From an uncultured Ilumatobacter sp. (GTDB lineage: Bacteria > Actinomycetota > Acidimicrobiia > Acidimicrobiales > Ilumatobacteraceae), in assembly GCA_905480335.1 (NCBI GenBank), contig CAJQPY010000003.1, positions 161,457 through 225,456 on the forward strand: 64,000 nt of DNA, read 5' to 3'. The notes beneath the pieces are model-generated. The model saw nothing but the letters and a program-made list of their open reading frames with translations, was not told the DNA's origin and ran no database searches. Of the stretch, positions 6,790 to 44,806 are shown piece by piece. Numbering within the stretch: the first letter of the stretch is position 1; each line of letters begins with the position of its first letter. Made by a program: the position numbers and the translations under genes.

Positions 6790-7311
6790 TCATACCTCTT
6801 CAACGGGTTGTTGGGTCTCAACCGCTTCGTCTTCGACGAATCGGCGGTAGGTCCCCGAACGTCCGCCAGTCTTCTCCCATAGCGTGAGCTCGCCGATCAC
6901 CATTGCCCGATCGGCTGATTTACACATGTCGTAAACCGTCAATGCTGCAGTGCTGCACGCATGCAGCGCCTCCATTTCGACACCGGTGCGGTCGACGGTG
7001 TCGACCTGCGCCTCAATCTCGACGAAGTCGTCGCCGAGCTCGAAGTTGATCGACACCGCCCCTATAAGAAGCGGGTGGCACAGCGGGATCATGTCGGAGG
7101 TGCGCTTGGCCGCTTGGATTCCGGCGACTCGAGCGACCGACAGCACGTCGCCCTTCTTCACCTCACGGTTCGCAATTGCCGTCGTCGTCTCGGGCTTCAT
7201 GATTACCTTGCACCGAGCAACTGCTCGACGGTGGGTGGGATCTTTCGGCGTCACATCGACCATGCGGGCCCGACCGAGAGGGTCAAGGTGGGTGAATTCG
7301 ACATCGCTCAT
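6790..7311 (-). CDS. moaC: cyclic pyranopterin monophosphate synthase MoaC
   Basis: MoaC-like sequence (MVDVTPKDPTHRRA..., IPLCHPL). The ORF-track start at 7389 adds an unlikely Arg/Gly-rich 26 aa, so the ATG at 7311 (MSDVEFTHLD) is preferred. Confidence 0.85.
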   Translation of the reverse strand: MSDVEFTHLDPLGRARMVDVTPKDPTHRRAVARCKVIMKPETTTAIANREVKKGDVLSVARVAGIQAAKRTSDMIPLCHPLLIGAVSINFELGDDFVEIEAQVDTVDRTGVEMEALHACSTAALTVYDMCKSADRAMVIGELTLWEKTGGRSGTYRRFVEDEAVETQQPVEEV

Positions 7312-7379
7312 CGACCGTGCACGGTAGCCGCGACCGGCTCCCTGCGCGACGAACGGGCAGACCGGGGTACGTTCAGCAG

Positions 7380-8153
7380 ATGGCATCAAGTAGCAATCTC
7401 CCCTACGACGCGCTCGAAACCCTCCGCGTCGACGGCGCGGGCTTCATCGATCTCATCAGGAACAACGACCCCGACATAGCGGTTCCGGCCTGTCCGGGAT
7501 GGACGCTCGCCGACCTCGCCTATCACCAGGGCGAGGTCTGGCATTTCTGGGGCCGGATCGTCGCGAGCGGTATCACCGAGCGCGAACAGCTGAGGGCAAT
7601 CCGCCAGATCGAACAACCGAGCGGGCCGCTGCTGGTCGACTGGTTGGCGCTTACGCACAACGAACTGTTCTCGGCACTCGTTGATGCCGGAACCGACCAG
7701 GAAGTATGGACATGGACGGGCGCAAACAGAGACACAGCATGGGTCCGCCGCCGAGTAGTCCAGGAGACCGCGGTCCATCGTTTCGACGCTGCAAGCGCCG
7801 TCAGCGACCCGTACAAAGTGCCGAGAGCTATCGCTGCCGACGGGATCGACGAGTTCTTAATGTGGTTCGCCGGTACCGAACGCCGGGAGGGCGAGATGAA
7901 GCCCGGCGGCACGGTGCACCTGCACTGCACCGACACGAGCGAAACCGACGTCGCCGCGGGCGAATGGTTCGTCTCAAGTCTGAAGGAGCCGAACTGCACC
8001 TTCACCCGTGAACACCGAAAAGGCGATGCGGCGATCCGGGGGCGAGCACACGACATCTTGATGTGGTTGTGGCGTCGCAGCGATGCCGGCATCGAGATCA
8101 TCGGCAACGACGTCGTGGCACGCCGATTCCGCGCATACACCAACCTCGACTGA
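7380..8153 (+). CDS. DinB/MDMPI-family protein (mycothiol-dependent maleylpyruvate-isomerase-like N-terminal domain)
   Basis: PGWTLADLAYHQGEVWHFW is a helix-bundle N-terminus typical of the actinobacterial TIGR03083-type family. The start is taken at the ATG at 7380 (MASSSN). Confidence 0.6.
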   Translation: MASSSNLPYDALETLRVDGAGFIDLIRNNDPDIAVPACPGWTLADLAYHQGEVWHFWGRIVASGITEREQLRAIRQIEQPSGPLLVDWLALTHNELFSALVDAGTDQEVWTWTGANRDTAWVRRRVVQETAVHRFDAASAVSDPYKVPRAIAADGIDEFLMWFAGTERREGEMKPGGTVHLHCTDTSETDVAAGEWFVSSLKEPNCTFTREHRKGDAAIRGRAHDILMWLWRRSDAGIEIIGNDVVARRFRAYTNLD

Positions 8154-42249: not shown

Positions 42250-43128
42250 TCAGCGAGCAGCGGCCTGGTGAGCGCGACGACGTTTGCCGGCCGCACGCAA
42301 CGCATCGCGGTTGTGATCACCGACCGCCATGAACGCGTCCCGCCAGTCGTCGCTCCCCCACCGCTGCGATGCCTGCACCGTCGTCCGCGGAGCGATCGAT
42401 GACTCGACCACATTAATTGCAAGCGTCACGATGTTGCGCTGCATTTCTTGAGCGCCTGGCTTCCCGCACGGATTACCCAGCGGAAAGTCAACGAAAACGA
42501 AGCGCGGGACCCCGGCCTCCTCGACGATGTCTCGGGCGCTCCCGACGACCACCGTTGCGATTCCTGCTGCCTCGAGGCGACGGGCGACCAGACTCACGGT
42601 CTGGTGGCACACCGGTCAAAGTGGAACGAGCAGCGCGACGTCGACGCCATCCTGTTCACACCACTCGGCGACCTGATCGGCGTCGAGCCCGGTCCGACGC
42701 TGGCTGTACTCGGTGGGCACACCGAAAAATCGGCCGTTAAGTGATCCGATCACACCGTCATCGGAGAGCGCCTGCAACGACGAGAGCGGCAGGAACGACT
42801 CGGTGTCTTCGGTGTGTGTTGCCTGCTTGTCCCACGAGAGATCCTCGGTGAACATCCGGTCGGGAACGTCGGCGACCGGATGGAAGTAAACAACCTTGTC
42901 GGTTGCGGGTGCACCGAAGTACGAATCGTGGTGGCGGAGAAACGAGGTGGTCACCACCGCGACGTTGGATTCGCTCATCAGCTTTGACGGACGGGTAAAA
43001 GGCACCTGGTCGAACGCCGCCCACCGATAAGCCTGCTCAAAGCCCTGCGCTTGGTAGTACTCCCGCGATTTGTCGATATAGCTGACGTGACTGCGCTGCT
43101 CCAGCTGGCGATCGGCTCGTTCGGTCAC
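42250..43128 (-). CDS. PrdB/GrdB-like reductase (selenoprotein B family), candidate selenoprotein with in-frame TGA at 42616-42618
   Basis: ORFs 42616..43299 and 42250..42612 share one frame and are separated only by TGA plus one Pro codon. Read-through gives ...DGVDVALLVPL-U-PVCHQTVSLVARRLEAAGIATVVVGS...FPLGNPCGKP, which parallels the clostridial PrdB motif U-G-T-C-H-R-S...EEAGIP as I recall it. The GTG start at 43128 lies 35 nt after the upstream stop. The alternative is a nonsense-mutated pseudogene. Confidence 0.6.
42587..42605 (-). promoter_or_regulatory. SECIS-like stem-loop downstream of the in-frame UGA
   Basis: The mRNA reads UGA-CCGGUGUGCC-ACCAGAC-CGUGA-GUCUGGU. This is a perfect 7-bp stem starting 10 nt after UGA, with a 5-nt apical loop containing GU, and it is extendable by 2 bp across a C:C mismatch. 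Confidence 0.5.
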
Positions 43129-43162
43129 ATGACAGAAGGTAGCCGCGCCGGCAGCGGTCGGG

Positions 43163-44233
43163 TCAGCTCGGCCAGGTGTCGGTGATGCGGTAGCCGAGCG
43201 GCCATGGATCCGTCGGGTCGACGCAGTAGTTAAACCGCCCGTATCGCCACGCCCGACCGGACACGATCGGCACGATTGCGTCTCGGGCGTCGGGGCCATC
43301 GCCGATTGTCGTGTCGGCTTCGATGCGTCCGACGAACTCCGACCCGATCACCGATCGCATTCGGAGTCGATCACCAACCTCCATCATGCCGCAGGAACGC
43401 AGCAGGGCCATCCGCGCCGACACGCCGGTACCGGTTGGAGATCGGTCGAGCTTGCCTGGCTCGACCACGACCGTGTTGGTCATCGAGTAGTCGCCGTCGC
43501 CGTGGTGTTCGAGCGGGCCAGCGATCTGACAGAACGAGAAATGGTTCCAGGCCGAGGCCGGATGCTCGAACGTCAGTTGTGCGTTGGCCGCCCGGGTAAT
43601 CTGCGAGCCGATGCGCGCCAGGGCCAGCCCGTTCTCGGGAACGATGTCAAGGCCGAGGTCGCTCGCATCGACCATCACGAAACTGTCGCCACCGAACGCC
43701 GTGTCGACGCGCAGGTCGCCGACACCGTCGACGGTCAGAGACACGTCGCGCTCTGCCACGAATGAGGCAACGTTGCGGATCGACACCGATTCCACCTTGC
43801 CATTGCGGCAAGTTGCCACCGCTTCGACCACTCCCCCGGGAGCATCGAGCAGCACCGTCGTGGTCGGCTCGGTCATCGTAACGATTCCGGCTTCGAGCAC
43901 CACGGTGGTGACGCACATCGAATTGGAACCGGACATCGGCGGGGTATCCATCGGCTCCATGATGATGAAGCCAATGTCGGCTGCGGGGTTGACCGCGGGG
44001 ACGAGCAGATTGATGTGCTTAAAGACCCCGCCTCGTGGCTCGTTGCCCAACAGCGACCGAAGTCGACCATCGCGTGCTACGAAGCGGGACTGTTCCCACA
44101 CGGTTTTGCCGGGCGGCGTGGCGATGCCCGAGACGATCACATCGCCAACCTCGCCCTCGGCATGGCAGCCGACGACCTCAATTGGGCCGGTGACGATGTC
44201 TTTTAGATCGACGTTCACCTCAGTACGGGTCAT
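43163..44233 (-). CDS. proline racemase-superfamily enzyme, dehydratase-type signature (3-hydroxyproline dehydratase-like)
   Basis: 356-aa ORF. PPMSGSNSMC is the first catalytic region and DRSPTGTG carries Thr instead of the racemase/epimerase Cys at the second position. Confidence 0.75.
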   Translation of the reverse strand: MTRTEVNVDLKDIVTGPIEVVGCHAEGEVGDVIVSGIATPPGKTVWEQSRFVARDGRLRSLLGNEPRGGVFKHINLLVPAVNPAADIGFIIMEPMDTPPMSGSNSMCVTTVVLEAGIVTMTEPTTTVLLDAPGGVVEAVATCRNGKVESVSIRNVASFVAERDVSLTVDGVGDLRVDTAFGGDSFVMVDASDLGLDIVPENGLALARIGSQITRAANAQLTFEHPASAWNHFSFCQIAGPLEHHGDGDYSMTNTVVVEPGKLDRSPTGTGVSARMALLRSCGMMEVGDRLRMRSVIGSEFVGRIEADTTIGDGPDARDAIVPIVSGRAWRYGRFNYCVDPTDPWPLGYRITDTWPS

Positions 44234-44537
44234 GTTCTGAGAGCGGGAGGGCCCACCAGTCGGTGGGCACGTCTGCCGCCGACCAATCGGGATGCGGGTG
44301 AATGCAGTCGACCGGACACACCGGCAGACACTTGTCGCATCCGCTACAGAGTGCAGGAATGATCACGACGTCGGCTCCATGGTTGAAGATTGCCCCGAAG
44401 TTTGGCGGGCAGTGCCGCAGGCATGCATCGCAGTTGATGCAATCGAGCATGTCGATGTACAGCGGCGGGTTCTGCCACTTCGGATTACGCTCTCGCCGCT
44501 TAATGCGCTCGTCGCGGTTGGTTGCGTCCCCAGCCAT
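44220..44537 (-). CDS. 2[4Fe-4S] ferredoxin
   Basis: 105-aa ORF with two CxxCxxCxxxCP motifs (CINCDACLRHCP, CSGCDKCLPVCP). Its stop overlaps the downstream gene start by 14 nt. Confidence 0.85.
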   Translation of the reverse strand: MAGDATNRDERIKRRERNPKWQNPPLYIDMLDCINCDACLRHCPPNFGAIFNHGADVVIIPALCSGCDKCLPVCPVDCIHPHPDWSAADVPTDWWALPLSEHDPY

Positions 44538-44806
44538 CGCAAGAGTGTATGACGCGCGGCGTCAGCTGCCGGATTCGGCATCGGGGCGCGAATGCCGAGC
44601 TTTCATCACCTCGACGAACGCCGTCATGAGATGTGGATCGGACTAGTCACCGCTGCCCGCCGGGGCCGATTACCAGGCACGCTTCGCTACTTGACCTCGC
44701 TGAACTCGTCAATGTCGAGCGGACCAGGTTTGATCTCGACTGCGGAGATCGGTCGCTCGGCCGATCGGAGTGCATGCCGTCATCATCGTTCCTATCATGT
44801 TTACCG

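Follow-up and report, generated by a model that had tools for sequence, protein, structure and literature searches.

We analysed a 64,000-nucleotide stretch of DNA from an uncultured Ilumatobacter sp. (GenBank assembly GCA_905480335.1, contig CAJQPY010000003.1, positions 161,457 to 225,456), hereafter called the window. Open reading frame (ORF) maps and translations place three minus-strand genes in the same orientation at 42250-44537. They encode a ferredoxin, an enzyme of the proline-racemase superfamily (PRS) and a PrdB-like selenoprotein, related to the B subunit of clostridial D-proline reductase. The ferredoxin and PRS genes overlap by 14 nt, and 34 nt separate the PRS gene from the PrdB-like gene. 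A first-pass annotation of the sequence had located all three tightly packed genes correctly, including the 14-nt overlap, and had given the gap as 35 nt, one more than it is. It had further proposed that the genes form a dedicated, possibly undescribed system for the reduction of imino acids that lacks the pyruvoyl subunit PrdA. Here, we describe the genes, their homologues and their surroundings, and we weigh what they suggest about the function of the PrdB-like protein.

The PrdB-like gene as a predicted selenoprotein gene

The PrdB-like gene (42250..43128, minus strand) has 292 codons and a GTG start, and it contains an in-frame TGA at codon 171 (42616..42618, minus strand; 42618..42616 in the direction of reading). 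This triplet aligns with the invariant Cys of the motif LVPLCPVCHQT in homologues that carry Cys at this column (Cys forms). Read as selenocysteine (Sec), it completes the redox motif U-P-V-C, a UxxC motif in the context LVPL-U-PVC-HQT. The Cys-form homologues, of 291-297 aa, align with the PrdB-like protein end to end. Two sets of homologous loci were compared: the best 80 of at least 419 genome loci from species-representative genomes (81 when the window is included), and an independent set of 80 metagenome loci, in which the TGA column and the hairpin described later in this section were counted over 79. At the column of codon 171, TGA is present in 79 of 80 genome loci and in 78 of 79 metagenome loci.

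RNA folding predicts a hairpin, ACCAGAC-CGUGA-GUCUGGU (7 bp with a 5-nt loop), that begins 10 nt past the UGA. The whole structure, resembling a selenocysteine insertion sequence (SECIS), lies at 42583..42609 (minus strand), with its core at 42605..42587 and an outer extension of 3 bp. In an alignment of 80 sequences, the codons that form the hairpin are near-invariant at synonymous sites, a rare Ser codon AGT included, whereas three codons just upstream vary freely. In the same alignment 92% of cells are paired, against 22-37% in slid controls, and two pairs show compensatory changes. The hairpin 20-mer is identical in 61 of the 79 metagenome loci, with compensatory variants in further loci, and the structure is degraded or lost in Cys-form genes. 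A search of Rfam returned no RNA family in the 41-46 kb region of the window.

Across both sets (L001-L080 and L095-L174), the 20-mer CACCAGACCGTGAGTCTGGT is nucleotide-identical in most of the ∼160 loci, which belong to at least five phyla, and the rare AGT Ser codon is kept within it even in high-GC genomes. This cross-phylum conservation is unusually strong for a bacterial SECIS; one possible cause is that the gene and its SECIS spread jointly by horizontal transfer.

As judged from these alignments, the hairpin is a SECIS element in all but experimental proof. Because the in-frame TGA stands at the Cys column of the homologues and is followed by a near-invariant hairpin, we conclude that the PrdB-like gene is a genuine selenoprotein gene, read through UGA-171, and not a pseudogene. 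The status of candidate selenoprotein that the first-pass annotation had given it is thus borne out, and inactivation of the gene, which that annotation had named as an outcome that would undo its proposal, is not what we found. The TGA might instead be a true stop, leaving a pseudogene or two separate small genes, as one could gather from the databases, whose Ilumatobacter entries end at 170 aa, and from gene callers, which list this 170-aa N-terminal fragment separately. However, ∼157 loci from different phyla share the TGA column, coding conservation persists past the TGA, a hairpin constrained at synonymous sites follows it, and Cys-form homologues read straight through the column. We therefore rejected the pseudogene reading and regard a true stop as having a negligible chance of being correct.

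A widespread family related to PrdB and GrdB

With Cys in place of the stop, the PrdB-like protein matches the NCBIfam model of PrdB (TIGR04483; E = 1e-20) with 74.2 bits, short of the equivalog cut-off of 300. The Pfam GRDB model (PF07355) scores 20.8 against a cut-off of 22 and is covered at profile positions 198-344 only, and TIGR01918 scores 39 against 65.45. Matches to GrdB, GrdF and GrdH are weaker than that to PrdB, with scores of 34-46 against cut-offs of 600-800.

A word-indexed search gave more than 3,200 homologues. At the level of 50%-identity clusters, the family comprises 2,356 clusters at E ≤ 1e-3, a number that falls to 176 at E ≤ 1e-30. The loci span Acidimicrobiia, delta-proteobacterial groups, Myxococcota, Dehalococcoidia, Spirochaetes and Alphaproteobacteria, and the hosts include the aerobic marine Ilumatobacter and Bradyrhizobium. 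For the Cys-form homologue P0013, a confident AlphaFold model (pLDDT 88, pTM 0.89) has alternating beta/alpha structure, with the U/CxxC motif at the start of a helix that follows a strand. Foldseek comparison of this model with the PDB gave nothing significant (best E = 0.058, TM ≤ 0.31), and a sequence-profile search of the PDB found nothing. We know of no solved structure among the relatives of the family, PrdB and GrdB included.

Selenoproteins of this description have been catalogued before. Among the selenoprotein families of the Sargasso Sea, 'proline reductase PrdB', with a UxxC motif, ranked third in abundance, with 42 Sec genes and one Cys homologue (PMC1088965), and in the Global Ocean Sampling (GOS) data 'PrdB' was among the top families, with 235 Sec and 110 Cys forms (PMC2398784). 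PrdB selenoproteins have also been reported from organisms outside the Stickland metabolism, such as Anaeromyxobacter and Geobacter (PMC1794560). Recent reviews describe only the clostridial enzyme (PMC13188914, PMC9312934). As a selenoprotein, the family cannot be called undescribed, a possibility raised earlier for the system as a whole. Our literature searches located no paper that addresses what the stand-alone family does, and none that describes the three-gene arrangement.

Absence of a conserved genomic partner

The genuine D-proline reductase requires PrdA, the PrdH-dependent formation of its pyruvoyl group and Sec151 of PrdB (PMC11229817). We looked for such partners by gene calls and Pfam searches within ±10 kb of the locus, followed by Pfam searches of essentially all remaining long ORFs of the window. 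No PrdA/GrdE, GrdA, thioredoxin, thioredoxin reductase or SelA/B/D was found among the long ORFs of the 64-kb window, in agreement with the earlier description, which had noted the absence of PrdA, GrdA/GrdE and a thioredoxin system. Neither is there a thioredoxin-type CGPC, CAPC or CPYC motif in any frame of the window, nor a tRNA-Sec, the sole tRNA there being a tRNA-Ala. The neighbours are ordinary housekeeping genes (gatCAB, lgt, melibiase, alpha/beta hydrolase, M48 peptidase, YbaK, thioesterase, SDR, ilv genes, moaA/moeA, folD and others).

The same picture was obtained beyond the window. In 160 other loci, no gene for PrdA, GrdE, GrdA, a thioredoxin system or the Sec machinery recurs beside the homologues, and PrdH, PrdC and the PrdF racemase are co-encoded neither in the window nor among the neighbours in ∼160 loci. 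Clustering of the ORFs within 7 kb yielded no neighbour family present in more than ∼12 of 80 loci. In a Pfam census of the nearest neighbours at 76 loci, no family exceeded 9 occurrences (PlsC-type Acyltransferase, 9 upstream; SDR, 9 downstream; Pro_racemase, 5), and Gly_reductase, GRDA and thioredoxin were absent from the top 25 families on either side. Apparent 'paralogues' in the ORF cluster C0 proved to be SDR genes, an artefact of single-linkage clustering. The Cys-form genes of Bradyrhizobium and of two actinobacterial metagenome-assembled genomes all stand in different contexts. The PrdB-like family is thus without a conserved genomic partner. The earlier annotation had recommended a survey of recurring neighbours: the absence of PrdA, GrdE and GrdA extends to the ∼160 loci, and the ferredoxin and PRS neighbours fail to recur outside a single Ilumatobacteraceae clade.

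One group of Ilumatobacter loci has surroundings of its own. In L009, L011, L012 and L016-L019 (e.g. L016 3435-5787), an SDR gene follows the PrdB-like gene by 3-4 nt and a divergent PlsC-type acyltransferase gene lies upstream of it. A hydantoinase/oxoprolinase-like gene, a second SDR gene and genes for a rhodanese, a Zn-ADH and a TauD-like dioxygenase are found nearby.

These observations bear on whether the protein could be a canonical B subunit of D-proline reductase (or of glycine or betaine reductase) whose PrdA, GrdE or GrdA is encoded elsewhere in the genome. Homology to PrdB along almost the full protein, the UxxC motif and a PRS member next to the gene, as prdF is in Clostridia, are what one would expect of such a subunit. 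However, the scores fall far under the equivalog cut-offs for PrdB (74 vs 300) and for GrdB, GrdF and GrdH alike, conserved N- and C-terminal extensions are specific to the family, none of the 160 loci has a partner gene, the adjoining PRS enzyme is of the Ser/Thr dehydratase type and not a Cys/Cys racemase, and the hosts include aerobes. On these grounds a canonical Prd or Grd subunit was rejected and appears highly improbable.

The ferredoxin and its upstream region

The ferredoxin gene (44220..44537, minus strand) encodes 105 aa of the 2[4Fe-4S] dicluster type, with two CxxCxxCxxxCP motifs and N- and C-terminal extensions that are family-specific. The Pfam models Fer4_7, Fer4_21 and Fer4 all match above cut-off, and no NCBIfam equivalog is reached. 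Orthologues with 79-87% identity lie directly upstream of a PrdB-like or PRS gene in nine related genome loci only, and a motif scan found no other ferredoxin adjoining homologues outside the Ilumatobacteraceae clade.

From the gene layout, the 95-nt interval between the ferredoxin gene and the divergent M48 peptidase gene (44538..44632, not assigned to a strand) is presumed to be the promoter region of the three-gene unit. It holds no match to the sigma-70 consensus, which is uninformative for a high-GC actinobacterium, and a promoter and terminator scan gave no informative signal at the locus. In most of the relatives (L002, L003, L007, L008, L013, L023, L025 and L092), a gene of ∼570 aa for a regulator with TPR and HD-GYP (HD_5) domains lies directly upstream of the ferredoxin gene. 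This gene is absent from the window, where the M48 peptidase gene takes that position.

The PRS enzyme

The PRS gene (43163..44233, minus strand) encodes 356 aa of the 3-hydroxyproline dehydratase type. The protein matches Pfam Pro_racemase (PF05544) with 381 bits and narrowly misses the NCBIfam equivalog T3LHypDht (NF047722), with 506.7 bits against a cut-off of 550. The dehydratase-type Thr that the first-pass annotation had noticed is correct (DRSPTGTG), and the second catalytic residue is Ser, not Cys. The two motifs of this Ser/Thr pair (MSGSNS ... DRSPTGTG) are identical in the alignments with 4K8L and 1TM0, which together with 4K7G_B ('3-hydroxyproline dehydratase') are the closest relatives of solved structure (E = 1e-121 to 1e-131). 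Zhao et al. (2014; PMC4113996) solved the structure of the t3HypD B9K4G4, with Ser90 and Thr256, and placed such enzymes in their 'cluster 3', which is heterogeneous and promiscuous for t3HypD and 4HypE and whose members are usually accompanied by OCD- or MLD2-type reductases of pyrroline-2-carboxylate (Pyr2C). The activity of the window enzyme is most likely, to judge by these likenesses, the dehydration of trans-3-hydroxy-L-proline (t3Hyp) to Pyr2C.

No OCD or MLD2 Pyr2C reductase, transporter or hydroxyproline catabolic enzyme of such a neighbourhood is encoded among the long ORFs of the window. An enzyme 71% identical to it, on another actinobacterial contig (L093), adjoins an OCD_Mu_crystall gene, that is, a canonical Pyr2C reductase gene. 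Another, 73% identical and from Ilumatobacter (L091), stands alone without a partner.

Stepwise assembly of the three-gene unit in one clade

We searched the 80 genome loci with the window proteins by tblastn. A PRS gene accompanies the PrdB-like gene in L001, L002, L004, L008 and L025. A ferredoxin gene lies directly upstream without a PRS gene in L003, L007, L013 and L023, with gaps of 31-178 nt. The remaining 71 loci have neither gene. Overall, a dehydratase neighbour occurs in 7 of 81 genome loci and in none of the 80 metagenome loci of the independent set, and all seven belong to one Ilumatobacteraceae subclade. In L001, the PrdB-like gene is set apart from the PRS gene by a gene for a predicted lipoprotein of 318 aa with a HEWGH metalloprotease motif (6982-7938). 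On another metagenome contig, L092, the gene order is HD-GYP, ferredoxin, PRS, PrdB-like, hydrolase, lgt.

Two cultured strains differ. Ilumatobacter nonamiensis YM16-303, assembly GCA_000350145.1, has the trio, divided between two contigs: L090, which carries the M48 peptidase, ferredoxin and PRS genes, ends 34 nt after the PRS gene, and L005 starts just before the PrdB-like gene. In Ilumatobacter coccineus YM16-304 (AP012057; L094 4918-7513), the PrdB-like gene begins 8 nt inside the 3' end of ligA and has no ferredoxin or PRS neighbour. The two I. nonamiensis contigs overlap by 30 nt (L090 8070-8099 = L005 1-30) in a near-perfect palindrome, ATGTCCGTTGGTGCC-T-GGCACCGACGGACAT, which occupies the interval from the PRS gene to the PrdB-like gene. 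This palindrome probably broke the assembly, and it may be a regulatory or terminator-like hairpin; it is not found in the 34-nt gap of the window.

The trio thus occurs in at least seven Ilumatobacteraceae sequences besides the window, a cultured strain among them, so that it is not unique to this genome, as the first-pass annotation had allowed it might be. A neighbour-joining (NJ) tree built from the PrdB-like proteins groups the ferredoxin loci in a single Ilumatobacteraceae clade, with the PRS loci as a subclade nested inside it. By this nesting the ferredoxin came first, giving a two-gene unit, and one gain of the ferredoxin gene followed by one insertion of the PRS gene is the simplest history. 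The three-gene arrangement is therefore a lineage-specific operon, assembled stepwise, and not a general one. The idea of a dedicated reductive imino-acid system does not hold for the family at large, the dehydratase neighbour being limited to one subclade and to a single evolutionary event. No alignment column holds a residue that separates the PRS-linked PrdB-like proteins from the others.

A single hydroxyproline pathway has to be weighed against this distribution. It would have the dehydratase convert t3Hyp to Pyr2C and the selenoprotein, fed by the ferredoxin, reduce Pyr2C to proline or open its ring, in place of the NAD(P)H-dependent OCD or MLD2 reductase. The packing of the genes is operon-like, the trio is kept in at least eight Ilumatobacteraceae sequences, one of them a cultured strain, and in the known chemistry of PrdB the Sec attacks the alpha-carbon of an imino acid (PMC11229817). 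A reductase partner would normally be expected because the 71%-identical dehydratase of L093 adjoins an OCD gene, and the window has neither an OCD nor an MLD2 gene. However, a single evolutionary event underlies the association, the dehydratase is missing from 74 of 81 genome loci and 80 of 80 metagenome loci, PrdB-like orthologues with and without it are indistinguishable, an unrelated gene intervenes in L001, and the close dehydratase of L091 has no partner at all. Moreover, the reduction of an imine by a Sec/Cys pair is unprecedented, and so is the reduction of such a pair by a ferredoxin. We consider a single pathway, though chemically conceivable, rather unlikely.

Its most specific form, that one aerobic marine actinobacterial clade recruited the 'PrdB' selenoprotein and its own ferredoxin as a selenium-dependent, pyruvoyl-independent reductase for dehydratase-made Pyr2C, is more doubtful still. 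If true, a selenoprotein family that has stood in catalogues for 20 years with no function attached would gain its first substrate and its first electron donor, and there would be a new route for reducing or opening imino acids.

Fusions to adenylate-forming enzymes

A profile search and its follow-up revealed ∼10 proteins of Pseudomonadota, of 793-817 aa, in which a complete AMP-binding adenylate-forming (ANL) enzyme is fused to a Cys-form PrdB-like domain (P0244-P0246 and P0391-P0399; gene loci L175 363-2780 and L176 2760-5213). Over 267 aa, this domain shares 40% identity with the window protein (E = 8e-59). In L177 (2427-17488), an unfused Cys-form gene of 297 aa is clustered with two AMP-binding, two CoA_transf_3, CoA_trans A/B and ECH genes, and one of the AMP-binding genes is an unfused relative of the ANL part of the fusions. 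CoA_transf_3, ECH or ACAD genes are also found near the Cys forms of L083 and L085. Around Sec-type genes, the density of ACAD and SDR genes is higher within 2 kb than beyond, in counts confounded by shared ancestry, and AMP-binding genes show no enrichment (1.0 per 100 kb at 0-2 kb vs 0.5-1.0 farther out).

Other features of these loci were also recorded. L176 has nearby genes for a glutathione peroxidase, a DAO/GCV_T (dimethylglycine-oxidase-like) protein and an aldehyde dehydrogenase, and the L177 cluster further holds a TRAP-type transporter, an IclR regulator and a rhodanese. In one predicted protein of 480 aa (P0255), part of a PrdB-like domain is attached to a Ser/Thr protein kinase domain, possibly through a gene-calling artefact.

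The fusions and clusters hint at activated carboxylates as substrates of at least one family branch. It is conceivable that the whole family acts on carboxylates activated as acyl-adenylates or CoA thioesters, for example in the reductive removal of an alpha-substituent, with the ferredoxin and dehydratase as incidental neighbours; the thioester would then stabilise the carbanion, taking the place of the pyruvoyl group of PrdA. The ∼10 fusions, with their domain 40% identical to the window protein, the company of AMP-binding, CoA_transf_3, CoA_trans and ECH genes in L177, the acyl-CoA genes near the Cys forms of L083 and L085 and the higher density of ACAD genes within 2 kb are all consistent with it. 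However, AMP-binding genes are not enriched beside Sec-type genes, acyl-CoA genes are very common in the host genomes, no ANL or CoA-transferase gene adjoins the window gene, and the fusion is restricted to one Cys-type branch. As an account of the family, we hold it to be unlikely.

A probable stand-alone, PrdA-independent selenoprotein

The reading that we favour, and that seems to us on balance probable, is that the PrdB-like gene encodes a stand-alone, PrdA-independent selenoprotein of a widespread family, to which first a ferredoxin and then a dehydratase were added in one clade. The gene would be a PrdA-independent member of the PrdB/GrdB superfamily, one already catalogued as a selenoprotein. 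In a putative mechanism, the protein would act alone as a selenol/thiol reductase, in which the target of Sec171 would be an electrophilic carbon in a small carboxylate, or in a substrate activated by another route. Cys174 would resolve the adduct to give a selenenylsulfide, to be re-reduced by a cellular reductant. In the ferredoxin clade, the co-transcribed ferredoxin possibly joins in electron transfer to the selenenylsulfide. This core chemistry would be independent of the dehydratase, which would make Pyr2C from 3-hydroxyproline as, at most, a lineage-specific add-on, and Pyr2C may or may not be a substrate of the selenoprotein.

Several points weigh against this stand-alone reading. The tight packing of the trio (the 14-nt overlap and the 34-nt gap), kept across ∼74-100% identity of the PRS enzyme, resembles that of a functional operon, and no canonical Pyr2C reductase lies near the locus, which leaves room for the PrdB-like protein as its replacement. 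The proposed catalytic scheme is borrowed by analogy from PrdB and GrdB. Because the PrdB-like protein has no Fe-S or flavin motif, direct reduction of its selenenylsulfide by the ferredoxin would be unusual. Finally, neighbours were called from simple ORF maps, and of the metagenome loci, which yielded no PRS or ferredoxin homologue, only 40 of 79 extend upstream by 1.5 kb or more.

In ocean metagenomes, few selenoprotein families are as abundant as that of the 'PrdB' UxxC selenoprotein. The marine protein is still named for the clostridial Stickland enzyme, evidently without the obligatory partner of that enzyme, PrdA. Database names such as 'glycine reductase' and 'D-proline reductase PrdB', and gene models truncated at 170 aa, are misleading. 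Testable entry points to its function are provided by the stand-alone state in ∼160 loci, the highly conserved SECIS hairpin, the operon of a cultured Ilumatobacter and the ANL fusions, and I. nonamiensis with the trio and I. coccineus without it offer a contrast in culture.

Comparison with known systems

With clostridial PrdB (Clostridium sticklandii and Clostridioides difficile), the window protein shares homology over ∼195 residues, a UxxC motif whose Sec follows a beta-strand at the corresponding position and a size of ∼26-32 kDa. It differs in scoring far under the equivalog cut-off, in having ∼47 N-terminal and ∼50 C-terminal extra conserved residues, in the absence of PrdA, PrdH, PrdC and the PrdF racemase from its vicinity, and in belonging to a family that occurs in aerobes and in many phyla. 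In a neighbourhood study of PRS genes from 2014, PrdA and PrdB stood solely beside true racemases. With the 47-kDa proteins GrdB, GrdF and GrdH (PF07355), the likeness is confined to their C-terminal half (profile positions ∼196-430), and a Sec-containing redox motif is common to both. Unlike them, the window protein has no N-terminal half and no GrdA, GrdE or GrdC/D, and its motif is UxxC where theirs is UxxCxxC.

Comparable observations apply to the PRS enzyme and the bacterial t3Hyp pathway (Zhao et al. 2014; Watanabe et al. 2014). Its Ser/Thr pair and its closeness to 4K7G, 4K8L and 1TM0 make Pyr2C the expected product, and its score lies slightly below the cut-off of the t3HypD equivalog (NF047722). 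However, there is no OCD/MLD2 reductase, DAAO, DHDPS or transporter gene near the window gene; a ferredoxin and a selenoprotein gene adjoin it instead. The C-terminal domain of the ANL fusions keeps the N-terminal YxxxxRxYY...W motif and the CPVCHQ centre of the window protein, whereas the fusions are Cys forms, joined to an adenylate-forming enzyme and found in a different phylum.

A further counterpart is the marine 'PrdB' family (Zhang, Fomenko & Gladyshev 2005; Zhang & Gladyshev 2008), abundant in data from the surface ocean and from other environments. In both papers homology was the sole basis for cataloguing it, without gene context, partners or function. We compared it by description: both have the UxxC motif, and in both the Sec forms far outnumber the Cys forms. 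On this match, the PrdB-like family of the window is most probably the 'PrdB' UxxC family of the Sargasso Sea and GOS papers.

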